Origin: a virus | Lineage: Duplodnaviria > Caudoviricetes | Length of the DNA: 64,000 bases | Virus record (IMG/VR): IMGVR_UViG_3300042905_005059 | Coordinates: 9,279-73,278 of that record | Reading direction: 5' to 3' (one strand) | Shown here: positions 25,227-48,433 of the stretch, piece by piece | Layout of the letters: each line of letters starts with the position of its first letter | Position numbering within the stretch: the first letter of the stretch is position 1 | The notes under the pieces: generated by a model | What the model was told of the DNA's origin: nothing | Seen by the model: only the letters and a program-made list of their open reading frames with translations | Database searches by the model: none | Made by a program: the position numbers and the translations under genes

Positions 25227-28200
25227 ATGAGCTTAAAAACAGCAAGAGGACAAATACTAATAGCTAATGGATTCGAAGATCCTTCCTCTTTAGCGTTGCC
25301 AAATATCATCAGCTTCTCGTCTTCAATCGACCCAGAGAATAATAAGTTTGCTGTTTATTTTTCGGTAGAGAGGAATTACGCTTCTCTTCAACTGGTATGC
25401 AGATTTTTAGATGAAGATAATAAAGAGATCCCAAGCTTAAAAACTATAATCAACGTTTTTGGCCTTGAGTCTTTTTCTTTCTACAAGGACAAGGTTTATA
25501 GAACATCTTTAGAGCTTATTGCTACTAATAAAAATGGCCAAGATTCTAGAAAGCTTGAGCCAATAGATAAAGCCAATAATAATCTAAATGTATTCGAAGA
25601 AGAGCTTATATCAGGCTTTAAGATAGCAAACACAGTAAATACTTATGATCAAGTTGATTTGTCTTTTTATCTTAATAATATCGTTGGCTTTAATATAGAT
25701 GATTTAGAAAATATATCATTATACTACAAAAGAAAAGACTATTTCGATTGGAAAGTTCTGCCTTTAAAAAACAATTATTCGCTCAAAAAGAATGCCGCGA
25801 ATGAGGTAGAGTCTTATTTTTATGAGCAAAAAAATATTAAGATAGAAAGGTCAGCAGATGGAGGAAATTTTAGCTTTCAAATAGAAGCAAAAGTAAAAAA
25901 CTTTAAGCCTTCTCAATCAGATATTCTTTCTCTGTATTTTGATATAATTAGTCCATCTCAACAAAATACTAGCAGCTCTACATTTCAAAAAGCAGAGTTA
26001 TTAGATCCTGAGAATCCGGCTTCTTTAAGATATGAGATATCAACAAGATTCTCTCAGATATATATTTCTACGGTAGGGAAAAATGAAAATGTTTTACCTT
26101 TTTACTCTTATTTTTTAAATGATAAGGACTACTATAAGTCTTCCATTGATTTTTTGAATTTACAGTTTGTAAAGAGCGGCGAAAAATTTTTCTATTATGA
26201 CTATCAATATTCTATAAAGTCATCAGACACAAAGGGGTTCTTTTATCCAGCTTCTGTTTCTGAAATATTGCCATGCATTTTAATTAATCAATTAGCTGGC
26301 CAAAATCAATCTGTAGTTTTGTTTTGGAAAATTAATGATGATTTTTTTGACTACAAGTTCTTGAATAAGAATATGTCAATATTCACTAGCTATGTAAAAA
26401 TTAAAGTTCAGTATAAGGTAAGCTCCTCGTATCAAGACTTAACTAAAGAAATTATCTTGACAAAAGACGCTCACTTTAAAGAGTCTGAGCAAAAATTTGT
26501 TTTATTCTTAAGAAGAGATGTCGATATTTTAGAAAACCAAAGAACAGTGTTCGATAGAATACAAGACAACGACAACAAGACAGACAATTTAAGAATTCTA
26601 ATCACAGAGCATAAAGTAGATTGCTCTCTATTCCAAAATGGTACGAAGACTTTCACTTTTGATAAGCTGATGATTCCAGATAAATGGAATTATATAGCTT
26701 ATGATAAGTATATTCCATTAGATGCTTCTATAAGAAATCCTCAGACAGAAAAGATAAACTTAAATTTGAATAGTTTATATTTGAGAGGAATAAGATTGCC
26801 AGAAAAAGGATTTAAGAGATTTGATCTGCTAAACGAAATAACTACTGACTCCAATGGATTCATCTTGTCTTATGGCGCAAGAATAATATACAAGCTTGCT
26901 TCAGATTTTAAAGCTTTTTATCAAGACCCAATAATAGAAGGAACTATTAATACTGTAGAAATACCATCTTTCCCAAACGATGTTTTTATAACTCCTCCAG
27001 ATTTAGTGTTACCACCTCCAAATTATGTAAAAATAGAAAATGGGGGAACTCAAGCAGAAGGTCTAGTTATGTTAAATGAGTATGGAAAAATAAATGGTAT
27101 ACAAATAATAAATCCCGGAAAAGGCTATTCTTTTTATACTACAGCTCTAAGCAAAAGGCAGCAAACTTTTACCGACTTAACGCCCTATGTAAAAACAAGT
27201 TATTTAATAGTAGGAACCAATCAAAACAATAATCCAAGCGCATTAGTAATACAAAATAATTCTTTTGATAAGCAAGCATTGCTAGCATCTATGCGCGGCG
27301 GTGTCAGATTGGCAAGCGCAAATAACGATAAGGCTTTGCTTAATAATTCAACTAGTTCTTTATCAGAACTTCAAAATAAAAAAATAGACCAGTATTTCCA
27401 AAGAGAAATCTCTGACAATTCTTTTATTCAAGATAACTCATCTGAGCCTTATCAAATAGTAACACCAAAAATAGAACAAATTAGTATTGGATCTCTAGAT
27501 GAAGAGTGGAGTATTATATCTCAACTATATACAAATAAAAACATAAATCCATACGAGCAAAGCGTAATATATAGCGAAGATGTTGATGCTGGAGTATCAG
27601 TTGTAGAAGATTCAGCTATAAAATCTGATCCAGTAGTTTCTAATGAAATAACACCAATTACAATAAATCCAGAAGCTTCTCAGGCAAGTTCTTCTGGAGG
27701 CTCATGGAAGATGTTTGAGCTAAGTGGCCTGAAAGTTATTCCTGATGGTAGCGCCGCAGTATCTTTGACAAGCTCATCGGCTGCTCCTCCGTCAATGACA
27801 TTGTTGCCAACTTCAGTAAGGTCGGATAATATGTATGGTTTTGGTCCATTGCCAAATATGCTACCTAGAGCAGAAATGTTTAATAGATTTGTAATGGCTG
27901 TCAATAATTTAAATTCTGTGAGAGTATTGGCTCCATTTGTGTGGTCTTTAGAGCATGATAGAACTTTTACTTCATGGTATAAGCAGATAACAAATGAAAA
28001 TGAATACGATATAGTAGAATTTAAAACTCAAGGAACAAGATTTGATCAAACTGCTCCCATAGGGCCAGAAATGCAGCCAATAAATACAACATTAGCTGTA
28101 GCTGCTAGAAGATCTGTGACTAAAGTATTTTTAAAGCCAGAGAAGGCTCTATCTTTGGGGTTAGAGTTCGCTGGCCAATATATCGAATCCACAGAAGAGA

Positions 28201-28619
28201 GTGAAAGCTACACATTCTCAGCTTTTATTCATCCAAGCATGAGTAATGCAATACCTTCTTATATATCTAGTAATGTAAAAAGAAAATACTTAGGAGTAGT
28301 AACAGACGCAACGTCCACTTGCGGACAAGTTCAATTGCCTTTGGATTCAGCAGGAGTTCCGTATGCAGCTTGTAGCAATGGATCGACTAGGCCTTTTTAT
28401 TCTATAAAAGAATTACCAGCAGATAAAACAATAGTAAGCACAACTTATAAATTCTTCAATAATTCTAATTCTGTATCTTTGCAAGCTAGAGGAACAGCTA
28501 AGGCACTACAAGTATTCATATCGCAAGATAGAGTTTGCGGAAGTGAATGCGGAGATTCCTCTTCTCAGACTATAGATTTTTCTTATACTAATATGTTTCC
28601 TGCTATAATAGAATTATGA
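25227..28619 (+). CDS. Large hypothetical virion protein with one GxGY baseplate-like module
   Basis: 1130-aa ORF containing GKINGIQIINPGKGYS, related to the 7729..9108 repeats. Confidence 0.6.
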   Translation: MSLKTARGQILIANGFEDPSSLALPNIISFSSSIDPENNKFAVYFSVERNYASLQLVCRFLDEDNKEIPSLKTIINVFGLESFSFYKDKVYRTSLELIATNKNGQDSRKLEPIDKANNNLNVFEEELISGFKIANTVNTYDQVDLSFYLNNIVGFNIDDLENISLYYKRKDYFDWKVLPLKNNYSLKKNAANEVESYFYEQKNIKIERSADGGNFSFQIEAKVKNFKPSQSDILSLYFDIISPSQQNTSSSTFQKAELLDPENPASLRYEISTRFSQIYISTVGKNENVLPFYSYFLNDKDYYKSSIDFLNLQFVKSGEKFFYYDYQYSIKSSDTKGFFYPASVSEILPCILINQLAGQNQSVVLFWKINDDFFDYKFLNKNMSIFTSYVKIKVQYKVSSSYQDLTKEIILTKDAHFKESEQKFVLFLRRDVDILENQRTVFDRIQDNDNKTDNLRILITEHKVDCSLFQNGTKTFTFDKLMIPDKWNYIAYDKYIPLDASIRNPQTEKINLNLNSLYLRGIRLPEKGFKRFDLLNEITTDSNGFILSYGARIIYKLASDFKAFYQDPIIEGTINTVEIPSFPNDVFITPPDLVLPPPNYVKIENGGTQAEGLVMLNEYGKINGIQIINPGKGYSFYTTALSKRQQTFTDLTPYVKTSYLIVGTNQNNNPSALVIQNNSFDKQALLASMRGGVRLASANNDKALLNNSTSSLSELQNKKIDQYFQREISDNSFIQDNSSEPYQIVTPKIEQISIGSLDEEWSIISQLYTNKNINPYEQSVIYSEDVDAGVSVVEDSAIKSDPVVSNEITPITINPEASQASSSGGSWKMFELSGLKVIPDGSAAVSLTSSSAAPPSMTLLPTSVRSDNMYGFGPLPNMLPRAEMFNRFVMAVNNLNSVRVLAPFVWSLEHDRTFTSWYKQITNENEYDIVEFKTQGTRFDQTAPIGPEMQPINTTLAVAARRSVTKVFLKPEKALSLGLEFAGQYIESTEESESYTFSAFIHPSMSNAIPSYISSNVKRKYLGVVTDATSTCGQVQLPLDSAGVPYAACSNGSTRPFYSIKELPADKTIVSTTYKFFNNSNSVSLQARGTAKALQVFISQDRVCGSECGDSSSQTIDFSYTNMFPAIIEL

Positions 28620-28879
28620 TTGATGAAAAATTTAAAAAGCTGTTTAAAGAAGCAGCTAAAGTATCTAAAAGCTTATCTCAATCCGCTGCAAAAGGCGTGG
28701 CAGCAATATCAGAGAATAAAAAGTTAATATCTACAAAATCTGAGGCTCAGTCTAGATTAGACATTTGCAATAAATGCAAAGACCTAGACAAAAGTCTAGG
28801 TCGATGCACTGTTTGTGGGTGTTTCGTTTATCTGAAAACTAAAGCAGATTACGAAAGTTGTCCAGAAGGAAAATGGTAA
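28616..28879 (+). CDS. DUF6171-like Cys-rich small protein
   Basis: RLDICNKC...RCTVCGC...KTK....SCPEGKW matches the R-L-x-I-C-x2-C...C-x2-CGC...CPxxKW pattern. Confidence 0.75.
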   Translation: MIDEKFKKLFKEAAKVSKSLSQSAAKGVAAISENKKLISTKSEAQSRLDICNKCKDLDKSLGRCTVCGCFVYLKTKADYESCPEGKW

Positions 28880-29575
28880 TTACTTTGCTTTCCTAAGTCT
28901 TTCAATAAGCTCAAAAACTTTAGGCTTTGGAATATCATTTATAGAATTAAAATCTTCAGCCTTATCAAAGTTCTCTAATATAAGCTTCTTTTTGATAGAA
29001 TCAAAAGATACGTTCCTTTCCTTCATAATGTTAGAAAGGACTGCTGCTGGAGAGACTGGATTATCAGCGCCGATCTCTTCGACTTGCTTAGCTCCAATTT
29101 CTTCTTGACCAACGATGTTAATTTTCAAAAAATTTCTTACACACCTGACGAAAGCGCGATTTTCAGAGATAGCAGCGAGATAATTTCGCGCAAAACTTTG
29201 AGTGTTGTCTGGGGAGGCATCTGCCAAGGCTTGAAAAGACACATCCACGTTACAGGTCTCATAATTACCAATCCAGTTGATGTAACAACTAGCAATTACA
29301 TAATTTGGTCCAGCTTCTGGCACATCATAAGACACGCATGTAAAACCTCTGATTTGGGCAAGCTCTTTAATTCCGCCAAGAAGAATTAGTAAATCTTTAT
29401 CTTCTAGCTTTGAGACATCAGTTTCTTGAGTCCTTTGCTTATTAGGAACAAGGAACTCGGGGCGAATCATTTTGCGCCAATTAACATATCCATCTTCATT
29501 AAAAACATATGGAATAGGAGGCTCTTCTAAGAGCCCGAATTCATTTCGTTTAAGTAGTTTCGGGGGAGTACTCAT
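28880..29575 (-). CDS. Rad52/Sak-like single-strand annealing protein (putative)
   Basis: LLGGIKELAQIRG, ALADASPDN and AISENRAFVRCVRNFLKINI resemble the Rad52-fold core (A-E-x-R-A-x-x-R-x-L). Lies in the recombination region. Confidence 0.5.
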   Translation of the reverse strand: MSTPPKLLKRNEFGLLEEPPIPYVFNEDGYVNWRKMIRPEFLVPNKQRTQETDVSKLEDKDLLILLGGIKELAQIRGFTCVSYDVPEAGPNYVIASCYINWIGNYETCNVDVSFQALADASPDNTQSFARNYLAAISENRAFVRCVRNFLKINIVGQEEIGAKQVEEIGADNPVSPAAVLSNIMKERNVSFDSIKKKLILENFDKAEDFNSINDIPKPKVFELIERLRKAK

Positions 29576-29609: not shown

Positions 29610-30743
29610 GAAGTAGAAGTAATCAGCCTCTTCCTTAAATGCTTCGTCCACCTTATCTGGAACACCGAAAGAATCATTCCTAACGTTTTCGCTATTTAAA
29701 TTATTTTTACAATGCCATCTGCTGGCAAAAGTTTTTCCTCCTTTAATTATTATTTTATTAGTCTTAAAGTATACTTTGCTTAAATCAAGACCGTCTAAAA
29801 ACTTCATGTCCAAAAAGTTAAGTTTGTTTACTTTTTTAAAATTTAGGTATTTAATTTTTTCTTTATTTATATCTTCTAGAGGCAAGGATGAGATTATTTC
29901 GTAGCTAAATTTATTGTCCTCTAAGAACTGAACAAAATCTGGAGAAGAGTTTTTTTCAATTTTGTAGTATATCTTTTTTATGTTATTTCTATGCTTAAAA
30001 AGCAAGTTGGAGTCTATAGCTTTAGAAGTAACAATGCTAAGAGAATTTAAAGTTAATTGAGCGTTCAAGTTGTGCTCTGAAAATAGGTAGTCCATCCTGA
30101 CTATCATTTCATTTTTATTGCCAGCTTTAATTTCAAAACAAGAGTCTGGAATGATTTCTAAACTTTGAGTGGCGTATACTTTGCCGACTGATATGGTACT
30201 ATCGAAATCATGATCTTCATTGAGAAGATTCTTAAGTATTTTTTTAGCTATCTCTTCTGGCCTAATGTTATTTATTTTCGCGCTTGTCGGATTATGAAAA
30301 TTCTTACGCTCTTCTTTTGAATGAATAATAGACTCTTCTGAAACTAGAGTATTATCTAAAGAATAGTCAACCTTTAAAAAACATTGCGAGATACTAAACT
30401 CTGAGGCTATGAGAGAGTACAACTTAGAAGAGCCGCAAAACATTTCAGAGTTTCTAATTATATAGGCTTTTTGATTAATAGAAGCAGAGTTATCAATGTA
30501 TGTATGATTAAAATAATACTTCTTGTCTTCTATAAAATGTACTATATTTATCTTATGGTTTTTTAAAATTGGCTCTATAAGCTCTATAACTCTGAACCAA
30601 AATACATAATGGTAATTGGGATCAGAAGATTGAGTATCAAGAACAATATATTTATTGAAATCTAAAGGATAGAACTTCTCATATATATAAGCGGATTTTG
30701 GCTCTAGACCAGTAGTGACAGAAAAAGATTTTAATAAGTTCAT
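29583..30743 (-). CDS. GT9-like glycosyltransferase C-terminal half plus extension
   Basis: N-terminal region parallels 49362..49928 (MNLLKSFSVTTGL vs MHIIEAYSLYSGL; WFRVIELIEPILKNHKINI vs WQEVISLISPELKSKNINI; ends IRPEEIAKKI vs FSPEEVAETF). Confidence 0.5.
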   Translation of the reverse strand: MNLLKSFSVTTGLEPKSAYIYEKFYPLDFNKYIVLDTQSSDPNYHYVFWFRVIELIEPILKNHKINIVHFIEDKKYYFNHTYIDNSASINQKAYIIRNSEMFCGSSKLYSLIASEFSISQCFLKVDYSLDNTLVSEESIIHSKEERKNFHNPTSAKINNIRPEEIAKKILKNLLNEDHDFDSTISVGKVYATQSLEIIPDSCFEIKAGNKNEMIVRMDYLFSEHNLNAQLTLNSLSIVTSKAIDSNLLFKHRNNIKKIYYKIEKNSSPDFVQFLEDNKFSYEIISSLPLEDINKEKIKYLNFKKVNKLNFLDMKFLDGLDLSKVYFKTNKIIIKGGKTFASRWHCKNNLNSENVRNDSFGVPDKVDEAFKEEADYFYFLTKEQLGA

Positions 30744-32590
30744 TGTACAAGAATAGAGTGGTGATTTTTAATAGAAAAATTATCCAAACAATAGCTTTGA
30801 AAGAAATTCTTATTTAAGAAATCTGGATCTTCGAATTCTTTGGTTTGAATAATAGCGCTTTCTATCATTGTGTTTCCGGAAAAAACGCTTTGGCAAGTTT
30901 CGTTTGAAGATACAAATATCTTTTTATTTGGATATTTTTCTTTGATGGCAGATATTATTTTTGTAGATAAGAATATATTATCTAACGAAGAATTGATAGA
31001 AACAAAGATTCTGTCTTCTGGAGAGCTTCCTGAAAATAACTCTTCTATTCTGAAAGATTTGTGCTTTTCATTATCTTTCATAGCTACATCTCGGAAATAA
31101 GATTCTATAGATTGACGCGGAGTTCCCTCTTCTATCTTCTTTAACCAATGGTCTAACCCTTCGTCGTCCTCTTTAATTTCGTGATGCAGAATTAATGCAT
31201 ACAAAGATTTAATCCAAATTTTAGGATCTTCTATGTAAGGCGTGTGCGCGTATGGATTTTTTTCTGGATAAGATATTTTTGATGGCTCGTAATTAGAGTG
31301 AGAGCAAGAGTCTAAAAATTTCTCTATTTTAGATCCAACACTTTCAGTAGAAAAATTATCAATAACCCATTTCCTAGCAACTCTGCCCATTTTTATTTTT
31401 TCATTCTCTGACATATCTAACACCAGCTTTAAGTTATTCGCTATAGACTTGGGGCAAGTAGAAGCTTTAATAAACTCTGTTCCAAATTCTCTGTACTCGC
31501 TCCAATCTAAAGCAATAGATGCCGCTTCTGGCTCGCACATTTCTTGTCCACAACTATAATTAGTAACAAGAGTAATTAATCCTGCTAATTTAGCTTCTTG
31601 GATTGGTATTTCTTGGCCGCCGCTTGTGAATGGATGGCAGTAAACATCCATAAGATTATATATTTCATTAAGTTGATTTTCAGAAACACCAATGCTAGTG
31701 CCGGTAGTTATGCAAGAGTCCCTTGTCCGACATCTCTCACAATCTGTGCTAGTTTTAGAGAAGTTTTTAATCTCATAATCTTTACAGGATTTGCAAACAT
31801 ATGTAGTTAAAATATCTTTGGTATCTACGCCATTTTCTTTACATAGTTTATGAATATTCCATCCTTCATGCCATCCAGTATGCAGAAGCAGCTTGGGCTT
31901 TGACTGAGGATTAGCGTCTTTAAAGATTTTAAATCCTTGGAGTAGGTTTGGAACAGATTTTCTTAATTGATTTCTGAATACGAATCCGATTATATAATTG
32001 TCTAATTCTATTTTATTTTTCTTTCTGATTGAAGCTTTCGCTTCTGGAGGAAGCGGCCTAAAATCAGAGATCTCAATTGTCCCGTGAACAGTTTTAACAT
32101 GAGTATGTCCAAGTTTATGCATTTCTTTTTCTGCGAAATTAGACCATACCCAAAAATTTTTAATCTTAGGAGCTTCTGCTACAGCATTAGAAAGCAATGG
32201 CAAGGAATCTAAGGTAGTCCAAATAACAGAATTAATTTTATCGAACCAAGGTTTGCCTATGGTATAATCGACTCCCCAAAAGTCTTGAACCCCGATATAT
32301 ATATCAGGCTTTTCTTCATTTACTACTCTATCTATTTCAAATGCCCCATAAGAATCGAGCCTTTGCTTCTCTGATGTTAATGCTTCGTTGGCGGTTCCGG
32401 CAGCGCCATAACTCTTCCAAGGAGTTCTTTCTAGCTCTGGATGGTGCTTCGTTATGCCTCCGCATAAAGACACTATTTCGTACTTGTCTGTCTTATATAA
32501 ATAAGAAAGAAGGGCTTTGGCATTTCTACCAAAACCCGTCTTAGACAAAGCAAAATCGGAGTGAAATAAAATCTTCTTCTTTTTTACCAT
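30740..32590 (-). CDS. GT4-family glycosyltransferase with CxxC/CxxC insertion, DUF4214-like segment and GT9-N-like tail
   Basis: TGFGRNA N-terminus, FVFRNQLRKSVPNL, DVYCHPFTSGGQEIPIQEAKLAG (GT4 ExxE-type motif with G in place of the first E). Confidence 0.75.
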   Translation of the reverse strand: MVKKKKILFHSDFALSKTGFGRNAKALLSYLYKTDKYEIVSLCGGITKHHPELERTPWKSYGAAGTANEALTSEKQRLDSYGAFEIDRVVNEEKPDIYIGVQDFWGVDYTIGKPWFDKINSVIWTTLDSLPLLSNAVAEAPKIKNFWVWSNFAEKEMHKLGHTHVKTVHGTIEISDFRPLPPEAKASIRKKNKIELDNYIIGFVFRNQLRKSVPNLLQGFKIFKDANPQSKPKLLLHTGWHEGWNIHKLCKENGVDTKDILTTYVCKSCKDYEIKNFSKTSTDCERCRTRDSCITTGTSIGVSENQLNEIYNLMDVYCHPFTSGGQEIPIQEAKLAGLITLVTNYSCGQEMCEPEAASIALDWSEYREFGTEFIKASTCPKSIANNLKLVLDMSENEKIKMGRVARKWVIDNFSTESVGSKIEKFLDSCSHSNYEPSKISYPEKNPYAHTPYIEDPKIWIKSLYALILHHEIKEDDEGLDHWLKKIEEGTPRQSIESYFRDVAMKDNEKHKSFRIEELFSGSSPEDRIFVSINSSLDNIFLSTKIISAIKEKYPNKKIFVSSNETCQSVFSGNTMIESAIIQTKEFEDPDFLNKNFFQSYCLDNFSIKNHHSILVQ

Positions 32591-33165
32591 AGATCTTCAT
32601 CCGACGACTCAGGCTTGGGAGCCTCTTCCTTCTTAGGGGCAGGAGGCGCAGCTTGAGTAGTAGCGGCTGATCTATTATCTTGATCTTGAATGGCCTTTTC
32701 AAAGATTTTTGCAAGAGAAAGAGCGAAGTAAGACTCTAGCTTAATGGCTTCTCCAAAAGTAAAGCCCATTAGAAACGAAGTCTTATCTTGAGCGTTTTCC
32801 TTGCTCTCCTTGGAGACAGAAAAAGAATAACCTACTTGAGCCATCTCTGATGGGTTGTCCTTAGTGCCCCTCATGTAAGGCGAGAACTTAATTCGAGTGA
32901 CTTGCTTTTGGGAGTCGTGGAATCCCGTGAATTCGGCATTACGACGCATTGCCGAAATGATATCGCCCACTTCAGTAGAGCTAAGCTTAACAGATGCAGA
33001 CATCTTTGGATTTTGAGCATTGCCAGCGAATGAACCGCGCTTCTTGCTCTCGTCCCAACTGGATTGTTTAATTAGATTAACGAAAACACAGTCATCTTTT
33101 GCAGAGATCTTAAATGAGCAGCCGCAACCAGTGTTTTTTGGATTTGGTTTGTAAAATTGAATCAT
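32584..33165 (-). CDS. Whirly-like ssDNA-binding protein (putative phage SSB)
   Basis: KLSSTEVGDIIS, GFHD, GYSFSVS and TFGEAIKLESYFALSL parallel the Whirly core. Acidic tail SSDEDLW. Start moved to ATG 33165 by the adjacent promoter. Confidence 0.6.
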   Translation of the reverse strand: MIQFYKPNPKNTGCGCSFKISAKDDCVFVNLIKQSSWDESKKRGSFAGNAQNPKMSASVKLSSTEVGDIISAMRRNAEFTGFHDSQKQVTRIKFSPYMRGTKDNPSEMAQVGYSFSVSKESKENAQDKTSFLMGFTFGEAIKLESYFALSLAKIFEKAIQDQDNRSAATTQAAPPAPKKEEAPKPESSDEDLW

Positions 33166-33172
33166 GCTATAT

Positions 33173-33201
33173 ATTATGGTGTTTTTGGGCCGAAAAGTCA
33201 A
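33173..33201 (-). promoter_or_regulatory. Sigma-70-type leaderless promoter
   Basis: TTGACT-N17-CATAAT, 7 nt before ATG 33165. The -35 box overlaps the dnaE TGA stop. Confidence 0.75.
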
Positions 33202-35762
33202 GTATTTTTGGAGTCAACTTCTTTCACTTCGGAAAGTTTTGTATATATTTTCAGTGTCTGAATACTAATAGTATCTCCAAATAAACAGTCTTGTTTTTTC
33301 ACGCCTTTAACGATGACAACGTCTTCTTCTTTCGGAAGAGTATCAGAGTTCAAAGATTTATTTAAATCTATCTTATCGTTGAAGGTGAGAACTGGAATAG
33401 ATCCAAATTCATCAGAAAGGATCATCTTGAATGTTCTTGTTTTCTTTTCGTTTTTAGATATCCATTCGGAGCTTTCTAAAACTCTGCCAACCACATAAAG
33501 CATCTGATTGTTCGGAGCTTCAGATATTTGCGCTGTAGTTATCAAATTTGGCATTTTACTTTTGAAGATCTCATTCAGAGATTTGTCGTAACTATAGCCA
33601 AGCAATTTGTTCTCATAGAACCAATTAGCAAAGCTTTCTGATTTATTATTCTGCTGATAGATCTTAAGATATGGGTCGTATTTCTTCTTAATAGTTTCTA
33701 GGCGACTTTCTTTAATTAAGAGTTTGCCATTTTCATTCTTGCTTTCAGATAGCTTCTTAACTGTTTTTAACAAATCGTAATCTTGCTCTGGGCCATACTG
33801 CATGCTAAGAACCTTTTCCTTATCGGTCAAGACGTTCCAAAGCTGAGCTTCTAGCACGACTCTACTCCTTGAGCTAGAGAAGCCATCTAGCGCACCGGCT
33901 TGGATAAGGGCCGATAAAACTCCAATAGAAATGCCAACTTCTTTTGCAGCTTCAAAAACTTCGAATTTATTAGACTGATCAGATTTAAAGTTCTTAAGCT
34001 TATCCATCGTCTTTTCAGAGATGCCTTTTATAGAAGATAGTCCAAATCGGATATCATTAGTCTGAATAGAAAAATCAGTTTCAGACTTAAGAATGTGAGG
34101 TCCAAGCAGCTTGATTCCAAAATGCCTCAATTCCTTTTGGATCTTTGAGATCTCTTGCAGAGGGGCTGGCTCATGCTTGGTCATCTCAAGCAAGGCCAAA
34201 AAAAACTCTTTTGGATACTTAAATTTAAGATAAACAGTGCATGCCGCCAGCGCAGCATAACTCATTGAATGAGACTTGTTAAAAGAATAGTTAGCTGAAT
34301 TTTCAAGAATACGCCAAAGGATGTCACCAATTTCTGGTGCTAGATTATTTTCTTTAATCTTGTCTTTGATCTTTTCCTGCCACTTCTTTACCTCTTCGAC
34401 TTTCTTTTTACCAACGATTCGGCGCAAAACTTCTGCTTCATCAAGCGTAAAGCCAATCTTATTGGACATTTTCATTAGCTGCTCTTGGTATAGAGCTACA
34501 CCTCCGCTGCCTCCCAGCACAGAATCGAAAAATTCATGAATACCTTCATATTGATTATTGTTCGTAAAATTAGAATATTGATCTACGAACTCAAGCGCAC
34601 CCGGGCGGGCGAGGGCGAGAACACCGCTTAGCTCTTCAAGATTGCGTGGTTTGACTTTCTTGCATACCTTGAAATTCGTATCAGCTTCAATCTGGAAGCA
34701 TCCATGAGGAGTTTTAAGATCTTGAAGTTGCTGATAAATGAAAGAGTCATTAAAATTGATATCATCTACCTTGATACCAACTAGCCTGCAAACTCTATCT
34801 ATGATAGAAACACTTCTAAGGCCAAGCAAGTCTAGCTTAACATTAAAGATAGAAGCCCAATTCATATCATAACTAGAAACGTGTTCTTTGTCACTAGTAA
34901 GTTCAGTAGGACAGCTTTGATCTATCGGATAGTATGAAAGCATCATTCCAGATGCATGGACGCTCTTATTCTTAATAAGTCCCCTAAGCTTAAGTGCTGT
35001 TTTATATGATCTTGGATTGTTGTCGCACCAGTTCTTAAAGTCAGGGACATCTACATAAGCTTCTTTAAGATCCATGACTTGGCCGAAGGTCTTTGGAATA
35101 AGAGAGCTTATGTCATTCATTTCTGACTCTGGCTTCTCATCAATAATTTTGCCGCACTCTTTGATAAGAAGTTTTCCACTTAGGGTAGTAAGAGTTAATA
35201 TCTTGGCTGTTCTGCCAGAAAAAAGCTGCTCCAAAAATTTAATAACTTTTGAGCGGTTGTAGTAGCAAATATCAATATCTACGTCGCACATCAGCGATCC
35301 ATCAAGATATGTGATTCCGTCTACTACTTGTTTCTTAGCGCGAATCTTGGAGATAAAGCGCTCAAAGAATAGTTCATATTTGATTGGATCTACTTTAGTA
35401 ACTCCAAGCAAATAAAGAATAAGACTACCAGCAGCAGAACCGCGCCCAAGGCCGACAGGTATGGAATTTTCGTTACAGTAGTTAATAACAGTCCAAACCA
35501 GAAGAATATAGTCAAGAAATCCAAGTTCTTTAATGGTCTCAAGTTCATATTTTACTCTGTCAGAATATTTAGGGAAATCTTCTTTAGCGATATTTAGTTT
35601 CTTGAAATTAGCCCTGCAAATTTGCATCAAGAAATCATAGTTAGAAGACTCTTCTTTGAGGCCATATTGCTTTTTCAAGCGGCTCTCGATATTGAATTCG
35701 GGCAATCTTACGCCATAAAGCGGAAGCTTAATACTAGAAAATAGAGAATTAAAGTCTTTCAT
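33198..35762 (-). CDS. dnaE: DNA polymerase III alpha, catalytic part lacking the PHP domain
   Basis: GRGSAAGSL, LFFERFI, DVDIDI, KLDLLGLRS, YSFNKSH, DIRFGLSSIKGI and a C-terminal OB fold. Begins without a PHP domain. Confidence 0.93.
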   Translation of the reverse strand: MKDFNSLFSSIKLPLYGVRLPEFNIESRLKKQYGLKEESSNYDFLMQICRANFKKLNIAKEDFPKYSDRVKYELETIKELGFLDYILLVWTVINYCNENSIPVGLGRGSAAGSLILYLLGVTKVDPIKYELFFERFISKIRAKKQVVDGITYLDGSLMCDVDIDICYYNRSKVIKFLEQLFSGRTAKILTLTTLSGKLLIKECGKIIDEKPESEMNDISSLIPKTFGQVMDLKEAYVDVPDFKNWCDNNPRSYKTALKLRGLIKNKSVHASGMMLSYYPIDQSCPTELTSDKEHVSSYDMNWASIFNVKLDLLGLRSVSIIDRVCRLVGIKVDDINFNDSFIYQQLQDLKTPHGCFQIEADTNFKVCKKVKPRNLEELSGVLALARPGALEFVDQYSNFTNNNQYEGIHEFFDSVLGGSGGVALYQEQLMKMSNKIGFTLDEAEVLRRIVGKKKVEEVKKWQEKIKDKIKENNLAPEIGDILWRILENSANYSFNKSHSMSYAALAACTVYLKFKYPKEFFLALLEMTKHEPAPLQEISKIQKELRHFGIKLLGPHILKSETDFSIQTNDIRFGLSSIKGISEKTMDKLKNFKSDQSNKFEVFEAAKEVGISIGVLSALIQAGALDGFSSSRSRVVLEAQLWNVLTDKEKVLSMQYGPEQDYDLLKTVKKLSESKNENGKLLIKESRLETIKKKYDPYLKIYQQNNKSESFANWFYENKLLGYSYDKSLNEIFKSKMPNLITTAQISEAPNNQMLYVVGRVLESSEWISKNEKKTRTFKMILSDEFGSIPVLTFNDKIDLNKSLNSDTLPKEEDVVIVKGVKKQDCLFGDTISIQTLKIYTKLSEVKEVDSKNT

Positions 35763-36397
35763 ATTTCAACTTGAAATTTAATTTTATTCCAAACTTTGAG
35801 ATTTAGTTCCAAATCAATAATTGCGTTATGAAGATTGTCATAATCGTGCTCTATGCTGTAATCTTTGCCCAAAGCTGTAAGATTAGTTTTGATTCCTTTT
35901 TTGTAAGTATGCAGAAGCTTATATTGATATTCGATCAAAGACTCTTTTGGCATCTTAGGAATTCCATATTTGATTCCTTTAGCCAAGCAATTAGTGTCTA
36001 GTATTTTATTAACTAGATGACTTGCTCGCAAACCTTTGAGTAAATACATCTCTTTTATAAGGTAGAGATCGAAGCCAAGAATATTATGACCAACAATGTA
36101 GTCAGCAGAGTCAAGCCAATCCCTAACAGTATCAAAGATATCGTCAAATTTCTTGCCAGTTGTTTGGATAAGCTGTTCAGGATATCTTGTGATTCTTCTG
36201 GCATCGTCTGATATTCTAAGATTAGTTTCCCACTTGACCAAGAAATCTCGCTCATCAATCTTTTTGCCTCCGACAGTATCAAGCATTGCAATCTGCCAAG
36301 GAAGATTTTGGCAAAAGTTAAGGCAAAGATTTAAAGTCTCGCAATCGATAAAGACAATCTTTTTAGACTTATCAAATCTTAGTAGTTCATTTTCCAT
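35759..36397 (-). CDS. DEDDh 3'-5' exonuclease (DnaQ-like)
   Basis: FIDCET, GHNILGFDL and HNAIIDL motifs. Confidence 0.88.
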   Translation of the reverse strand: MENELLRFDKSKKIVFIDCETLNLCLNFCQNLPWQIAMLDTVGGKKIDERDFLVKWETNLRISDDARRITRYPEQLIQTTGKKFDDIFDTVRDWLDSADYIVGHNILGFDLYLIKEMYLLKGLRASHLVNKILDTNCLAKGIKYGIPKMPKESLIEYQYKLLHTYKKGIKTNLTALGKDYSIEHDYDNLHNAIIDLELNLKVWNKIKFQVEI

Positions 36398-37154
36398 ATT
36401 TTTCTTTGAATGATTCGGCGCAGAATTCGTTTGAAGAGCAGTGATCTAGATTTGGTTTATTTAAAGTCGTTCTTTCAGAGATGCATCGGAAGGTAAGATA
36501 AGCCAAGAAGTCTTCCTTATTTTCATAGTACACAGACTGTGTTTTGATTGCCACTTGTTTGTTTGCGACAATTTCTTCGACTTTTGATTTAAGAATTTGA
36601 TCAAATGGTAAATTATTGTCCTCTACAAAATAAACAGGATTGCAAAAACTAAAATCAGGAACGCAAATACTGTAAGTTAAATTATTCTTAAATACATAAG
36701 AATCATAGAACGGGACAGCTAGGATAAGATTGTCATCATTCCATAATTCTTTTAAAGTCTTGCAATCTATTCTTGGATAGTAATAAAATCCAGTGGTGCT
36801 TGCTGTAGTAGATATCTTAATTAGATTTTTGTATCCTTCAGCGTTTCTTATAAAGATTATTATTTTATGCTCTTTGCCTTTAGAGTCAGCAGTTTTATTG
36901 TTGATATCATCGCATACAGTTAAACGTAAGCCAAACCTCAATTCTATTTTAGCGTCTTCACAAGACTTGTAAGCTTCTAGAAATCCAGAAATGGAATCAT
37001 CAACAAGGCAAATGCTGCTAAGATTTAGCTTTTTAGCTAAATCTATAATTGAACTTGGCTCATCCGACTCGCTTGAGCCAGATTTTGCCAGCGTTAAAAT
37101 AGATTTCCCAAGGCTATAATGGGATTTAAAAAGCGGAATCGCTGAATACTCCAT
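36387..37154 (-). CDS. Stand-alone PHP domain of Pol III alpha (degenerate metal ligands)
   Basis: FKSHYSLGKSILT, FGLRL, HKIIIFIRNAEGYKNLIKI and YYYPRID match the DnaE N-terminal PHP domain. Confidence 0.85.
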   Translation of the reverse strand: MEYSAIPLFKSHYSLGKSILTLAKSGSSESDEPSSIIDLAKKLNLSSICLVDDSISGFLEAYKSCEDAKIELRFGLRLTVCDDINNKTADSKGKEHKIIIFIRNAEGYKNLIKISTTASTTGFYYYPRIDCKTLKELWNDDNLILAVPFYDSYVFKNNLTYSICVPDFSFCNPVYFVEDNNLPFDQILKSKVEEIVANKQVAIKTQSVYYENKEDFLAYLTFRCISERTTLNKPNLDHCSSNEFCAESFKEKYGK

Positions 37155-37159
37155 ACTCT

Positions 37160-37187
37160 AGTATGGGTCAACGACTCAAGAAGTCAA
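37160..37187 (-). promoter_or_regulatory. Sigma-70-type leaderless promoter
   Basis: TTGACT-N16-CATACT, 5 nt before ATG 37154. The -35 box overlaps the upstream TGA stop. Confidence 0.65.
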
Positions 37188-38149
37188 TTGAAAAATGGAT
37201 CATTCTTCCGCCAGTATGGACAACCATTGTACTCTTTTTTATTTATAAGTTTAATTTTTGAGTCGTTTATTAATTCTGCTTTAATGAAAGATGATTTAAT
37301 AAATTTATCATTTTCATCGGTTCCAATGTAAAAAATCGCTGGAAGTCTTGATGGACAAATCCATTTTCCTTGCACATCGCTACCACACATCCACTTTTTC
37401 TTTGGAGAACTAGCAGCAAGATTTTGTAAGGCTTTCTTCTCGTCAAAAGAGTTAATATATCCAGCTACATAACTTAAATAAGATTTGAATCCCTCTAATT
37501 GCTCCTCAGTAGGCTTAGGAGCTTGTTGAATTGGTTGCTTTTTAAATTTTAAAAATATAAAAGAAACATCAGGAATATATCCTTTGGTTTTAAATACGGC
37601 CAAAGAATACATCAAATTTTGCAAATTAAAATCTATTTCTTCTTTAGAGAACTTAGCTTTGCTTGACTTGTAGTCGTAAATTTTATATTCAGTGTCGTTA
37701 AATTTAGCTAATTTGTCTATGAAGCCGTTGATGATATAATCATTTTCTTCTAGCTTGAATTCTGATTCTGCTTCTAATAGAACTGAACCATTGCAAAAGA
37801 AATCGCTTTGTAGGCCAGTTTGAATCATCATATAAATAAGATCCAAGTTTTCTTCGTCGTCTACTTTAAGTTTTTTAGCATTTTTTAAAATTAATCTATG
37901 TATAGCAGGATTTTTAATTACCCCTGCTTTCCCAGAGCATAGGTCGTCAAAATACTTTTTATGCCTGTCGGTCAAGAGAAGCTCAAAAATTAAATGACAA
38001 ATAGTTCCTCTTGAAGCTCCAGAGTTAGAAATATCTGGAAGCTTAAGAATATACTTAGTATAGTAAAGCCAACTACAACCTTCGATAGTCTTAATCTTGC
38101 TGGCGCTAAGTTTTACCTTTTCGGTTTTTATTTGATTGAGTTGTTCCAT
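37184..38149 (-). CDS. PD-(D/E)XK (RecB/Cas4-like) nuclease
   Basis: LSASKI...C..LYY, GTICHLIFE, GFIDKL, IYDYKSSK. Confidence 0.85.
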   Translation of the reverse strand: MEQLNQIKTEKVKLSASKIKTIEGCSWLYYTKYILKLPDISNSGASRGTICHLIFELLLTDRHKKYFDDLCSGKAGVIKNPAIHRLILKNAKKLKVDDEENLDLIYMMIQTGLQSDFFCNGSVLLEAESEFKLEENDYIINGFIDKLAKFNDTEYKIYDYKSSKAKFSKEEIDFNLQNLMYSLAVFKTKGYIPDVSFIFLKFKKQPIQQAPKPTEEQLEGFKSYLSYVAGYINSFDEKKALQNLAASSPKKKWMCGSDVQGKWICPSRLPAIFYIGTDENDKFIKSSFIKAELINDSKIKLINKKEYNGCPYWRKNDPFFN

Positions 38150-39063
38150 TCTATGATTTTATTTTTATCTTTAAGATGTAGATCTCCAAAATCTTTGCCT
38201 CCAGTAGGAAGGGCAATTCTAACTTGAGAACTATCAAAGTAATTTATTAAAGTTTGTCTTGCTGTCTCTGCGGCTCTATTTCCTGCGCCAGTAAAAAGCC
38301 CATCGTTATTAAAAGCTACAATTATTTTCTTAGGATTTAAAGATATCAGAGAATATATTATGGCGCTACTTATATTTAGTCCAAAAGAAACCAATACATT
38401 CTTAATACCATTTTCTCTCAACGCAAGCATGTCTCCTATACTTTCGACTAATATGATGCCATTGCTAGACTTGAGTTCTTTAAGGTTGACTTTGGCTGGA
38501 TAGACCCATTCTTTTTTGTCCCCAAGGAGCTTCCATTTCGGCCTGCCCTCCATCAAAGTTTTAGAAATGTCTCTGCCAGCAAAGCCTATTACTTCATCTT
38601 TATTGTTAAAGATTGGGAAAACGTACCTATTGAACATTTTTCCGCCAGTAGCCACTCCTCCTTGAAAGGGCTCCAAAATAGAATCAGATATACCTCTGTT
38701 AGTCCAATAAGAAGAGTCTCTTAACAATTTAATCAATAAAGACTTATCAAATGTAGAAGTTTGTTTTATTGTTGGCTTTGCCCTGTCTTCTTCTCGATAA
38801 GAAGTGTCTATTCCTTTTGCCGAAATCCAATTCTTGGCTTCATCAATTGATTTTAACTTTAAAGTAAGCCTAACTAGATCTTCTAAAGACCCGCTAATGT
38901 TTTCTTTAAAATCTACCCACTGGCCAGAATTTTTCCAAATTCTTAAAACATGATCATTATCAGAATCTCTATAAAGAGGTCTTGTTCTATACTCTTTGCC
39001 ATGATCGAATAGAACATATCCTATGTCTTGAAGAATTACTCTGACAGATTCGCAGTCATTCAT
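38128..39063 (-). CDS. DnaG-like TOPRIM primase
   Basis: YWTNRGI, RYVFPIFN..DEVIGFAGRD, ILVESIGDMLAL, IIVAFNNDG, KDFGD. Adjacent to DnaB. Confidence 0.82.
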   Translation of the reverse strand: MNDCESVRVILQDIGYVLFDHGKEYRTRPLYRDSDNDHVLRIWKNSGQWVDFKENISGSLEDLVRLTLKLKSIDEAKNWISAKGIDTSYREEDRAKPTIKQTSTFDKSLLIKLLRDSSYWTNRGISDSILEPFQGGVATGGKMFNRYVFPIFNNKDEVIGFAGRDISKTLMEGRPKWKLLGDKKEWVYPAKVNLKELKSSNGIILVESIGDMLALRENGIKNVLVSFGLNISSAIIYSLISLNPKKIIVAFNNDGLFTGAGNRAAETARQTLINYFDSSQVRIALPTGGKDFGDLHLKDKNKIIEWNNSIK

Positions 39064-39071: not shown

Positions 39072-40538
39072 TTAAAGCACTTCTCCATCCGAACCTGAGT
39101 CATCTAGCTCTGGGCGCAAAGCTCTTGCATCTACAATATCAGACAAGGTTCCACGCTCTTCTACGTTAAAGTTAGCTATATTAAAACTAATGAAATTAGG
39201 CTGATATTTAACTGATCGGCCTTGTTGAATTCTTACGAGATCGTGATGGCCTTGAGAGTCTCTGCCTTGAAACCGAGTGGCAAGTGGTATCATCTTGTGA
39301 GATCCAAAATCCTGCCCATCTTCAGCGATCTCTTCCACAGTCTTGCGCCTGAAGATAGCGACGTATGAAGCGTACCATTGCAAGCGATCAGATTGAGAGA
39401 TCGCGCTGCTATCATCCACGCCATTCTCTGCGCTTCGATTCAATTGACAAGCAGTAAGAATTGGAACATTTAATTCAAGAGAAAGCTCTTTCAAAGAGTT
39501 GACTTTTTCGCCAATCAACTGGTACTCTTGCTTATTCTTATCTGATTCTCCGGTTAATTTGATGTAGTCATAAATAATAACGCATTGGTTTCCACGGCCA
39601 ACCTTTGAAAAATACCAGCGCTTTACAATAGACACAATCTCTCCTATTGGTTTCCCAGCTACCTGAAGATGATCTACTTGATTGCTAACGCTTTTTATTG
39701 TGGCTTTACTATCTTGAAATTTAGCGTAAAGCTGAGCATTCTTTTTCCAATTGCCAGTTTCAAGATGCCATACTGGAATTCCTGTAAGAGATGAAGCTAT
39801 TCTGAACTTCATATCTATTGTTGCCATTTCAGTATCAAGGACAAGAGCTTTGCAGCCTTTGTTTATACTTGTTACTTTTATAGCAAGATCATTAAGAATA
39901 GTAGACTTACCATGCTTTGGTCGACTTACCCAAGCATAAAGATTGCCGGGGCGAATGCCGCCATATAAGCGATTGAAGTTTTCGTATGGGGTCTGTAGAC
40001 CATTTTCAGAAATAGGATTATTTCCGCGCTCTTCAATGATTTCAATAATATTAGAAGTTACGTCTTCTGGCTTATTGCTTTCATTTGTGTAGACGCAGAT
40101 TTTACTATTGTAAATTTTATCTGCTTCTGTTATGATTTCTTCTATAGGCTTGTCGGCGCAATTATGAGCAAAAGCTTTAATTTCTTGCCCAGTTGTTTCG
40201 ATTTCTCTGCGGATTCTATATTTCACTAATTCCTTAGCAGCTTCGACTAGGCCCTGCTTAGTGGTTGGGATAAGGCATACACTATTAACATAATTAAAGA
40301 TGTCAATAGATTGATCTTTGAAAGTAATGCCAAGATTTTGAGCTTTTTGAGCGATTAAAATCTTATCTATCTGCTCGCCTTTGCTGAACGTTTCTCTAAA
40401 GACGCAAAAAATAGTATAATGGACTTCGTTGATAAAGTCTTTCTCGTTAATGAAAGATTCTATGTCTGAAAAAGACTCTGGATGTTTGATCAGTCCAGAT
40501 ATGGCGTATTTTTCGATTTGAAGCGAGTAAATTGACAT
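39072..40538 (-). CDS. dnaB: Replicative DnaB-like helicase
   Basis: Walker A SRPKHGKST, LDTEM, IIYDYIKL, ACQLNR; DnaB-like N-terminus. Confidence 0.9.
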   Translation of the reverse strand: MSIYSLQIEKYAISGLIKHPESFSDIESFINEKDFINEVHYTIFCVFRETFSKGEQIDKILIAQKAQNLGITFKDQSIDIFNYVNSVCLIPTTKQGLVEAAKELVKYRIRREIETTGQEIKAFAHNCADKPIEEIITEADKIYNSKICVYTNESNKPEDVTSNIIEIIEERGNNPISENGLQTPYENFNRLYGGIRPGNLYAWVSRPKHGKSTILNDLAIKVTSINKGCKALVLDTEMATIDMKFRIASSLTGIPVWHLETGNWKKNAQLYAKFQDSKATIKSVSNQVDHLQVAGKPIGEIVSIVKRWYFSKVGRGNQCVIIYDYIKLTGESDKNKQEYQLIGEKVNSLKELSLELNVPILTACQLNRSAENGVDDSSAISQSDRLQWYASYVAIFRRKTVEEIAEDGQDFGSHKMIPLATRFQGRDSQGHHDLVRIQQGRSVKYQPNFISFNIANFNVEERGTLSDIVDARALRPELDDSGSDGEVL

Positions 40539-40954
40539 TAAAGATTTATATTGAATTTGTCTTTGAAAAACTGCTCCGTCAGGTCTTTGACTTCATTCTC
40601 GTAAATTTCCACTAACTGAAATTTATTCAAAGAAAGCCAATTTTCTTTTGCTACATCTCTCTTGATAGACTTTAAATAGTTAAGTCTAGAGTCTGCATGG
40701 AAAAACTTATTAAAAGCTGAATGCTGCCTGCCGTGAACCTCTACGGCTATTTTAAGCGTTGCATTAATTATGTCTACTTTTAATCTAGACCCAAAGACAG
40801 GAAACTCTTCGTAAACTATATGATTCTTCCAGTATTTTTTAAGAAACTGCTTGGTATTAAATTGTACTTTAGAGCGAGAAGAAGCATCCCAATCAATTAA
40901 ATATTGGGACACATTTTTACTTACCGCTTTTCCGTACACATTTAAAAGTTTCAT
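40538..40954 (-). CDS. Vsr/DUF559-like endonuclease
   Basis: EEFPV....LKVDI......IAVEVHGRQH...RD..KENW....LVEIY. Confidence 0.75.
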   Translation of the reverse strand: MKLLNVYGKAVSKNVSQYLIDWDASSRSKVQFNTKQFLKKYWKNHIVYEEFPVFGSRLKVDIINATLKIAVEVHGRQHSAFNKFFHADSRLNYLKSIKRDVAKENWLSLNKFQLVEIYENEVKDLTEQFFKDKFNINL

Positions 40955-42063
40955 TTCTTAAGAGCGCTAATGAATTTATTAAAAAGATACTTAGTTATAT
41001 CTTCATGTTCTTCGAGGAAGTTCTTTAGATTTGCTTCGCCTTGATGTTGCTTTGGCATTTCTAAAGAATTATCGGCAAGCTCTTTAATAAGCTCATCAGT
41101 AATTGTAATCCAAGCTCCCTTCGCATGGGCGAACTCCCAAGCCAAAAGCTGGTCTACGATCTCGTATTCCACCCAAACGCTTGACCCATTAGAGCGACCA
41201 TACTTAATGGGGTATCGAACTTCTCTGCCAGACTTTTCGTTTGGAGTTTTCTTGAAAACGATCTTGCACCAATGACCAACTGGATTGCCTTCGCCCTTAG
41301 CGTTGGCATAAATGAAATCTTTATTCCAGCGCTGCTGGAACTCTAGAATCCAATCAGAATAGTGCAAAGCAGCATTTCCGCCGCTTGCGTTGGTAACCTT
41401 CGGGTCTCCCTTCTCATATGGGTTTATCTTGATGGAAGATCTAACCTGAGAGATCAAGAAACAGATATGTCCTCTAGAAGAGAAAGCTGTAGCCATTTTG
41501 CGCAAAAGATCAGAAGTAAGTAGAGCGGCACCAGCAGTTTTGTTGGCTTCTGTAGCAGACTTTGCCAAGTCGTTTCTGGGAACGAGAGCATCAAGACTGT
41601 CTATGATAAAGAAATAAATATTGCCTTCGTCATTATCTTTGATTAGCTCACGCATTGTATCCGTTACAAATTCATAATCATTGGTAGGGATAACTCGCCA
41701 CTTTGCTGGATCAATATTAACTCCTGATCTAGACACCATGTTTTCGCTGAGTCGGCCTTCTGATTTGATGTAAATAATGCAGCCTTTTTCAGGATGCATC
41801 AATTGAAAATTACGAGCAAATGCCAGTGCATTGCTGGTTTTGCCGCCTTCAGTAATTCCGGATGATCGGATAATGCCCGGATGAATTCCACCGCCCATCT
41901 CAATATCCAAGGTCAGACTTCCGCTGCTAATGACATAATCAATATTATTGTCAAATGCATAATGGTGATCCTTGTTTCTGTTGAGAATATTATCTAGGAC
42001 TTTGAGCTTTCCTGATGCTGTTTGCTCTGCTTGTTCTTGAGCTTCTTTTTTTTGCCTTGCCAT
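40951..42063 (-). CDS. recA: RecA/UvsX-like recombinase
   Basis: SSGSLTLDIEMGGG, Walker A GITEGGKT, FIIDSL, ISQVR, GGNAALHYSD. Confidence 0.9.
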   Translation of the reverse strand: MARQKKEAQEQAEQTASGKLKVLDNILNRNKDHHYAFDNNIDYVISSGSLTLDIEMGGGIHPGIIRSSGITEGGKTSNALAFARNFQLMHPEKGCIIYIKSEGRLSENMVSRSGVNIDPAKWRVIPTNDYEFVTDTMRELIKDNDEGNIYFFIIDSLDALVPRNDLAKSATEANKTAGAALLTSDLLRKMATAFSSRGHICFLISQVRSSIKINPYEKGDPKVTNASGGNAALHYSDWILEFQQRWNKDFIYANAKGEGNPVGHWCKIVFKKTPNEKSGREVRYPIKYGRSNGSSVWVEYEIVDQLLAWEFAHAKGAWITITDELIKELADNSLEMPKQHQGEANLKNFLEEHEDITKYLFNKFISALKK

Positions 42064-42430: not shown

Positions 42431-42459
42431 ATTATGAGGCTCTTCTCAACGCTTGTCAA
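42431..42459 (-). promoter_or_regulatory. Sigma-70-type leaderless promoter
   Basis: TTGACA-N17-CATAAT, 6 nt before ATG 42424; overlaps the gmd 3' end. Confidence 0.78.
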
Positions 42460-43510: not shown

Positions 43511-43511
43511 A

Positions 43512-48429: not shown

Positions 48430-48433
48430 TTGT

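Follow-up and report, generated by a model that had tools for sequence, protein, structure and literature searches.

The DNA analysed here, referred to as the window, comprises 64,000 nt of an uncultured virus of the Caudoviricetes (positions 9,279 to 73,278 of the IMG/VR record IMGVR_UViG_3300042905_005059) and carries, directly downstream of a gene for the alpha core of a DNA polymerase III (dnaE), a gene of 193 codons whose product is predicted to adopt the Whirly fold of plant proteins that bind single-stranded DNA (ssDNA) (Table 1). An initial annotation, made from the letters alone, had proposed that this Whirly-like protein acts as the phage's SSB (single-stranded DNA-binding protein). 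The 193-aa open reading frame (ORF) is a real, conserved gene. When 5.8 billion proteins were searched, 58 homologues with 35-98% identity came up, none of which has an assigned name, and a profile search of 1.84 billion cluster representatives returned at least 671 clusters (50% identity) at E <= 1e-3, with 538 at 1e-10 or better; some viral and bacterial clusters already bear an automatic name, for instance 'Whirly transcription factor domain-containing protein'. Because all homologues begin at the family-wide N-terminus M-IQFYKPN, the same point as the ATG at 33165, this ATG is taken as the true start, and the alternative upstream start TTG at 33201 was ruled out by the same N-termini. In the family alignment the protein is made of three parts, a conserved core (residues 1 to ~160), a linker of variable sequence and a conserved C-terminal tip.

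The Whirly assignment of the 193-aa protein is solid at the level of the predicted structure. The AlphaFold2 model calculated with the family alignment (mean predicted local distance difference test, pLDDT, of 87.7; predicted TM-score, pTM, of 0.76) presents in order four strands with a small extra hairpin, a helix at residues 63-74, four more strands and a long helix at residues 137-170, that is to say the two beta-beta-beta-beta-alpha repeats in one chain that characterise the Whirly fold. In an exhaustive VIA-align comparison with 48,161 PDB representatives, the best structural match was PBF-2 p24 (1l3a; Z 16.1, root-mean-square deviation (rmsd) 3.0, 139 residues), followed by StWhy2 (3n1h; Z 15.7) and by MRP1 of T. 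brucei (Z 15.1), after which the scores dropped to Z 7.2. The ten best Foldseek matches were plant Whirly structures throughout, with E values of ~3e-6 to 1e-5, and the ESM Atlas model of the exact protein (pTM 0.76) matched, with TM 0.76/0.81, a mostly bacterial cluster of which 73% of the members carry PF08536. Whirly structures therefore lead by two structural methods, far above background, and the initial annotation, which was to be given up if no Whirly- or PC4-like fold was predicted and for which a Foldseek comparison with the WHY structures had been proposed, is borne out on both points.

The single 193-aa sequence gave no match in Pfam (E up to 10), PHROGs or the PDB sequences, and the narrower family profile (A1) returned nothing from the PDB sequences. 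When the broader profile (A2), built from 53 diverse relatives, was compared with the PDB sequences, all six plant Whirly entries (StWhy2, p24, WHY2, WHY1, WHY3) came out on top, with a best E of 2e-3. Ten of these 53 relatives match PF08536 singly, and the curated cut-off of this family (23 bits) is passed by P0062 (25.1 bits; 52% identical to the window protein) and P0141 (23.6 bits), the relatives that pass being 39-52% identical to the window protein. The Pfam check suggested at the outset succeeded for some of the relatives and failed for the window protein itself; membership of PF08536 would hold for the family by transitivity, the window sequence alone lying below Pfam detection. The alignment by hhalign of A2 with a profile of 20 aligned plant WHY2 proteins (A3, gathered with an 80-residue stretch of StWhy2) reached a probability of 85.5% and an E of 5.8e-6 over residues 52-159 of the window protein, and 89% and 2.2e-6 under a laxer alignment setting. 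The motif pairs in the alignments, by hidden Markov model (HMM) to StWhy2 and by hhalign to WHY2, are KLSSTEVGDIIS/ALSATEVGSLIS, GFHDS/FFHDP, GYSFSVS/GYFISLS and the last helix/AEFAVMRTAFSFAL, so the Whirly motifs put forward in the initial annotation are found in order on real plant sequences, and above the shuffle background. The family HMM scored 120 of 120 plant WHY2 proteins at 9.9-38.7 bits (median 19.9), compared with at most 11.0 bits for 2400 shuffled copies and less than 0 for reversed copies. The identity to plant Whirly is ~16-18% over ~100 alignable columns, and the first repeat gave no confident alignment. These comparisons argue for a significant family-level sequence homology to the plant Whirly ssDNA-binding proteins. 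The relatives closest to plant Whirly, P0207 and P0149, are on short contigs and their gene context is uninformative.

E. coli SSB, T7 gp2.5 and T4 gp32 each consist of a DNA-binding core, a linker that is disordered and an acidic tip closed by an aromatic residue. The window protein has the same three-part plan, and its gene, like theirs, is placed with replication and recombination genes; the difference lies in the core, which is an OB fold (oligonucleotide/oligosaccharide-binding fold) in the three classical proteins and a predicted Whirly fold, with no Pfam match to an OB-fold family, in the window protein, and no sequence or structural relationship links them. The flexible A/P/K linker with an acidic-aromatic end that had been read from the sequence corresponds to residues 172-190, predicted to be disordered (pLDDT < 50), and to a tip that is conserved across the family (e.g., DDDLW, DDEDIF). 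The last residue is W or F in 145 of 185 full-length relatives, it is combined with an acidic last octet (at least 3 acidic and no basic residues) in 117 of them, and many of the remaining relatives have D-x-P-F-type motifs near the C-terminus. The core is basic, with a pI of 9.3 for residues 1-160 that is also the family median, and the tail bears a net charge of -4 (family median -6; tail length 27-77 aa). The acidic run closed by W or F also answers, through homology or convergence, to the C-terminal acidic-Trp motif of Whirly proteins, plant WHY2 ending in ..EWD[KR] with E237 and W238 invariant (A3 alignment; 120 proteins). An acidic-Trp end being conserved in plant Whirlies too (PMC9070903), such a tail cannot be counted as a trait of SSBs alone. 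In StWhy1 a conserved lysine of the Whirly domain is the docking site of the Glu-Trp residues, and ssDNA binding rises when the Trp (W272) is mutated (PMC9070903); an autoinhibitory acidic-aromatic tip may be a family trait.

The placement of the gene immediately after dnaE, pointed out in the initial annotation, is confirmed in the window, where 32 nt separate dnaE from the Whirly ATG on the same strand. The Whirly gene is not the last of its unit, the 616-aa glycosyltransferase starting within its final codons. The gene order of this DnaB/DnaG/nuclease/PHP/DnaQ/DnaE module, with Whirly right behind dnaE on the same strand, was kept in 80 of the 80 related loci of the initial set, in which Whirly identity goes down to 33%. 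A second scan, for which the polymerase was the seed, brought at least 587 related stretches in IMG/VR; 78 polymerase-seeded loci were newly fetched, 74 of them with room after dnaE, and in 68 of these 74 further loci Whirly lies 0-157 nt (mostly 24-51) after dnaE. Exactly one copy of Whirly is present in each of three relatives that are 96-100% complete (CheckV; 162-178 kb).

Table 1. Features of the replication region around the Whirly-fold gene (positions in the window)
Feature	Position	Strand	Basis or remark
RecA/UvsX-like recombinase	40951..42063	minus	PHROG; Pfam RecA_N in relatives
HNH-like 138-aa protein	between DnaB-type helicase and RecA/UvsX-like recombinase	same strand as Whirly gene	
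DnaB-type helicase	39072..40538	minus	Pfam
DnaG-type primase	38128..39063	minus	Pfam
PD-(D/E)XK nuclease, possible exonuclease partner of the annealing protein	37184..38149	minus	Pfam
Separate PHP-domain protein	36387..37154	minus	Pfam
DnaQ-like 3'-5' exonuclease	35759..36397	minus	Pfam
Pol III alpha core without PHP (dnaE), directly upstream of Whirly	33198..35762	minus	Pfam
Sigma-70-like promoter site TTGACT-17-CATAAT	33173..33201	minus	ends 7 nt before Whirly ATG
Whirly-fold gene	32584-33165	minus	193 codons; ATG at 33165, TAA at 32586-32584; protein ends SSDEDLW
Predicted Whirly-fold core, residues 1-170	32656..33165	minus	beta4-alpha-beta4-long alpha; AlphaFold2 model, structure matches, hhalign
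A/P/K/E-rich linker, predicted disordered, with acidic-aromatic tip SSDEDLW and stop codon	32584..32655	minus	pLDDT < 50
616-aa glycosyltransferase	30740..32590	minus	ATG overlaps Whirly stop (ATGGTAA)
11-bp hairpin and T-rich run	32512..32537	minus	47 nt after Whirly stop, within codons 18-27 of the glycosyltransferase
p231, conserved 231-aa protein, modelled Rad52/Red-beta-type annealing protein	28880..29575	minus	structure prediction

Comparison with the close relative L007 (IMGVR_UViG_3300010885_050420) shows 96-99.8% identity over ~10 kb on either side and 75-88% across the PHP-DnaQ-DnaE cassette (33166-37665), with one sharp boundary at the start of the Whirly gene and the other near the PHP promoter. 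The pattern suggests that close relatives exchanged the polymerase transcription unit as a whole by recombination. With respect to L007, additional mosaic patches are located at 28166-28665, 26166-26665 and 24666-25165.

Expression signals were also found around the Whirly gene. Of 54 distinct related loci, 46 carry a promoter-like site scoring at least 9/12 upstream of the ATG, in most cases at an unchanged position, and the typical conserved site consists of TTGAC[AT], 16-17 nt and a -10-like hexamer that ends 5-8 nt before the start, although the encoded proteins have drifted apart to 33-50% identity. There is no visible Shine-Dalgarno sequence before the Whirly ATG, and because of the spacing between promoter and ATG the transcript would start at or beside the start codon; we infer that it is leaderless or near-leaderless. 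This arrangement also precedes the ATGs at 42424, 37154 and 29575 (minus strand), so the module looks, on the sequence, as if it were cut into four promoter-defined units beginning at the ATGs 42424, 37154, 33165 and 29575. Promoter sites with a -10 ending 3-8 nt before the start, and with no Shine-Dalgarno sequence, occur in addition at 55758 (minus) and 59187 (plus). Downstream of Whirly, most of the loci with this glycosyltransferase show the hairpin again. Across 49 sequences, its cells are paired in 82.7% of cases versus 78.7 +/- 0.8% in shuffles, and 25 cells are changed on both sides versus 9.7 +/- 3.7. It codes for the peptide TGFGRNAKA, and pairing is sometimes kept where the peptide changes (Phe/Lys codons to TTC/CGA in L026); the conservation is suggestive only, because the encoded peptide is conserved and the sequences are related. 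The function of the hairpin may lie in partial termination or in the control of translation. With the promoter-like site and the hairpin, the Whirly gene would be expressed strongly and as a unit of its own, in keeping with a stoichiometric protein.

Most dsDNA phages, like cellular life, use OB-fold SSBs. In six-frame searches of the three relatives of 96-100% completeness, none of the families PF00436 (SSB), phrog_44, gp32, Enc34/gp2.5-type SSB and PC4 was found, and two partial relatives were likewise without a match to the searched SSB families. In the window, the scanned ORFs (those of 120 aa or more, three end ORFs excepted) include no SSB family, which agrees with the earlier remark that no OB-fold SSB was recognisable there. 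PF02229 (PC4) matched neither the protein nor the genomes of the three relatives. The phage T5 PC4-like SSB (4bg7), which works in phage DNA replication, and bacterial YdbC/SP_0782 resemble the window protein as non-OB ssDNA binders of the wider PC4-like/Whirly superfamily; they differ from it in being single beta4-alpha units that dimerise (type II), whereas the window protein is predicted to be an internally duplicated type I domain.

A further element of context is the neighbouring protein p231, conserved in the whole lineage. A promoter-like site of its own, TTGACA-16-CATAAT, stops 6 nt short of the ATG, and in six loci, where the two glycosyltransferase genes are missing, p231 follows Whirly directly. 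Neither Pfam nor PHROGs gave a match for it. In its model (pLDDT 83.1), residues 6-155 match RAD52 (Z 7.3), Mgm101 (6.7), phage Sak (6.3) and the N-terminal domain of Red-beta (6.0), and the three-helix residues 173-231 match the C-terminal domain of Red-beta (8tfu, Z 6.8, rmsd 2.0, 56 residues; 6m9k, Z 6.6; rmsd 2.0-2.1), which was solved with an SSB C-terminal peptide in 8tfu and with lambda Exo in 6m9k. The eight best Foldseek matches of p231 are RAD52, with an E of 2e-3. The two domains point to the same class, and p231 is thus a putative single-strand annealing protein of the Rad52/Red-beta type. The Red-beta C-terminal domain binds E. coli SSB (PMC6393309). An annealing protein with a Red-beta-like C-terminal domain near an SSB-type tip is what the SSB model predicts, and p231 would be a candidate partner for the tail of the Whirly protein.

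Taken together, these data lead us to think it fairly probable, though well short of certain, that the gene encodes the phage's own SSB, replisomal or recombinational, in which a Whirly domain takes the place of the OB fold. The reading is supported by the conserved acidic-aromatic tip, the synteny with dnaE, the absence of canonical SSB families from the three relatives and the nearby putative annealing protein; the SSB role, which we infer, is well supported by this context. By analogy with plant Whirlies, the core would probably form a tetramer and bind ssDNA without sequence preference on the faces of its beta-sheets. When no DNA is bound, the acidic-aromatic tip would be folded back onto the basic DNA-binding surface, and DNA binding would free it for the recruitment of partners, as in E. 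coli SSB, T7 gp2.5 and T4 gp32. Candidate partners of the tip would be the Red-beta/Rad52-like annealing protein, the primase, the polymerase and the UvsX-like recombinase. The strong promoter-like site of the gene and the possible partial terminator could provide the high, stoichiometric expression that an SSB needs.

Several observations weigh against an SSB role. A Whirly fold alone does not imply a replicative function, plant Whirlies being repair and genome-stability factors that work beside OB-fold SSBs, and the RNA binders MRP1/2 match the model almost as well as the Whirly structures. The absence of recognised SSB genes could also be explained by a phage SSB of an unrecognised family or by the use of the host SSB. 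The synteny has its exceptions, since Whirly does not adjoin dnaE in 6 of the 74 further loci; in the two of these six cases that were searchable (L159 and L160, the records of L136 and L153) it lies ~10 and 34 kb from dnaE with the glycosyltransferase directly after it, and the tightest linkage of Whirly is to this 616-aa enzyme and not to dnaE. Promoter-like sites are not enriched in the region overall (50 versus 41 +/- 6 in shuffles), and the match scores of p231 are middling. The motif KGKAAL of higher-plant Whirlies, which serves ssDNA binding and assembly, is absent, the N-terminus being FYKPNPKNTG; in a global alignment of low confidence, Tyr5-Lys6 alone fall on the YK of YKGKAAL. Whirly-like proteins of algae and liverworts are without KGKAAL too (PMC9070903). 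Finally, ChmC, a phage protein of Whirly fold, prefers RNA (PMC11077065).

Among the other functions that could be assigned to the protein, the main rival, that of an accessory factor for genome stability or recombination of the plant-Whirly kind is unlikely in our view, yet it has a real chance of being right. The protein would then bind ssDNA at breaks and stalled forks, and channel it to the annealing protein or recombinase or shield it from them, while the host SSB coats the forks. Plant Whirlies do act in organelle genome repair beside OB-fold SSBs (PMC9070903, PMC7549692), a UvsX-like recombinase, a PD-(D/E)XK nuclease and the putative Rad52/Red-beta-like protein are encoded near the Whirly gene, and recourse to the host SSB is compatible with the lack of a phage SSB gene. 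However, a phage that has its own helicase, primase, polymerase and exonuclease would be unusual in relying on the host SSB alone, the Whirly gene is universal and single-copy in the lineage with a strong promoter-like site of its own, and the tail fits the pattern of a replisomal SSB.

The Whirly fold is known in plants, in trypanosomes (MRP1/2), in Pur-alpha and in a wider PC4-like group (PMC7549692), and a role as RNA-binding protein acting on phage mRNAs instead of DNA, after the manner of trypanosome MRP1/2 or chimallivirus ChmC, has also to be weighed; we hold it to be very improbable. ChmC (PhiPA3 gp61, PhiKZ gp67) is a phage-encoded Whirly-type homotetramer with three-stranded repeats and a disordered, partly acidic C-terminus, which binds RNA better than ssDNA and handles mRNA (PMC11077065). 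It shares with the window protein the Whirly-type fold and the disordered C-terminal region, its homotetrameric state suggests the same oligomeric state for the window protein, and many transcripts of this phage may be leaderless. MRP1 resembles the model closely (Z 15.1, 133 residues aligned), whereas MRP1/2 bind RNA as a heterotetramer and the Pfam family MRP is matched by only 1 of the 53 relatives, with an E of 0.085, against 10 of 53 for PF08536, the family of the plant ssDNA-binding Whirlies. ChmC is set apart, by its description, in having beta-beta-beta-alpha repeats where those of the model are four-stranded like plant Whirly (PMC11077065), no detectable sequence similarity to known proteins where the window family has Pfam-level similarity to plant Whirly, and an RNA preference with an mRNA role at the phage nucleus where the window gene has a replication context; the linkage to the replication module persists across the lineage. 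The linker is moreover A/P/K/E-rich, versus the N/G-rich tail given for ChmC (compared by description, no search for chimallin having been made). The most improbable of the functions considered is that of a regulator or a glycosyltransferase partner, i.e. a promoter-melting factor like PBF-2, or a protein presenting DNA or another substrate to the translationally coupled 616-aa enzyme. It is true that p24/PBF-2 was first described as a transcription factor (PMC9070903), that the phage has its own sigma factor, that the start of the glycosyltransferase overlaps the Whirly stop and that the pair moved together in the two examined cases of six. Six related loci nevertheless lack the glycosyltransferase and keep Whirly after dnaE, the conserved hairpin and U-run separate the expression of the two genes, no DNA-modification enzymes were identified, and an SSB role explains the tail and the absence of another SSB better.

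Among the closest known counterparts of the window protein are the plant Whirlies (StWhy1/p24, StWhy2, AtWHY1-3; PF08536), whose known activity is ssDNA binding. Both have the same fold (Z 15.7-16.1, 135-139 residues aligned), a second repeat that can be aligned at profile level with the TEVG helix, the FHD motif, the GY-S-S strand and the final helix in common, and a C-terminal acidic-Trp motif after a variable stretch. They differ in that the phage protein has neither KGKAAL nor a transit peptide, in that its tip stands at the very C-terminus (..DEDLW) where the plant proteins have ..EWD[KR], and in that its gene belongs to a Pol III-type replication module, a presumed replisomal SSB in place of a repair factor or nucleoid protein. 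Plant-specific is the usual label for plant Whirlies, yet the replication enzymes that they work beside in the organelles are derived from phages, namely the Twinkle primase-helicase, T-odd-like polymerases and a phage-type RNA polymerase. Plant and algal Whirlies could conceivably descend from a replisomal SSB of such a phage, taken up along with the other organellar replication proteins of phage origin, and the plant Glu-Trp motif would then be a relic of the tip by which the phage SSB recruits partners and inhibits itself; this descent seems to us doubtful. The origin of plant Whirlies does become testable by phylogeny. In a large lineage of uncultured phages with a global distribution, a Whirly-domain protein appears to occupy the SSB slot. 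If confirmed, this would be a clean non-orthologous replacement of a core replisome part, with a convergent tail architecture, which would carry the Whirly family beyond plant organelles into phage replication and provide a mechanistic analogue for the plant C-terminal Glu-Trp motif. What is new here is the biological slot in which an already known fold and family occurs, together with its SSB-like tail; in a literature search, most subscription journals being outside its reach, no paper dealing with a phage replisome's Whirly-domain SSB was found.

At the sensitivity of tblastn, the Whirly family had no match among 50,697 deposited phage genomes, and the dnaE beside it matched 1360 records, all with less than 60% identity and the best 15 with 26-33%, i.e. 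no close cultured relative. Among the prokaryote genomes scanned, the family was found on two contigs of metagenome-assembled genomes only, both with the phage gene order, which gives no reliable host. These contigs, L078 (CAZYHH010000019.1) and L079 (JABXKB010000040.1), have the order dnaE-Whirly-glycosyltransferase-p231 and come from bins labelled Pseudomonadales and Promethearchaeota; they are probably phage contigs caught in the bins, and the archaeal label would be no guide to the host. A search for fused or longer forms of the Whirly protein found none, which is weak evidence.

In the rest of the window, nine consecutive large ORFs on the plus strand (619-28619; 191-3175 aa, ~9300 residues) gave no Pfam match, and only one of them, at 7729-9108, had weak PHROG matches, of head-closure or baseplate type (the 3175-aa ORF being outside the PHROG scan); the virion module of this lineage thus appears essentially unannotatable by sequence. 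On the minus strand, 42446-55431 holds a dense run of sugar-nucleotide and glycosyltransferase genes (epimerase/dehydratase, aminotransferase, GT1, GT17, GT9, CAP59-like), beside which a class II ribonucleotide reductase is encoded at 51956-53980. A sigma-70-family factor is encoded at 55792-56400.

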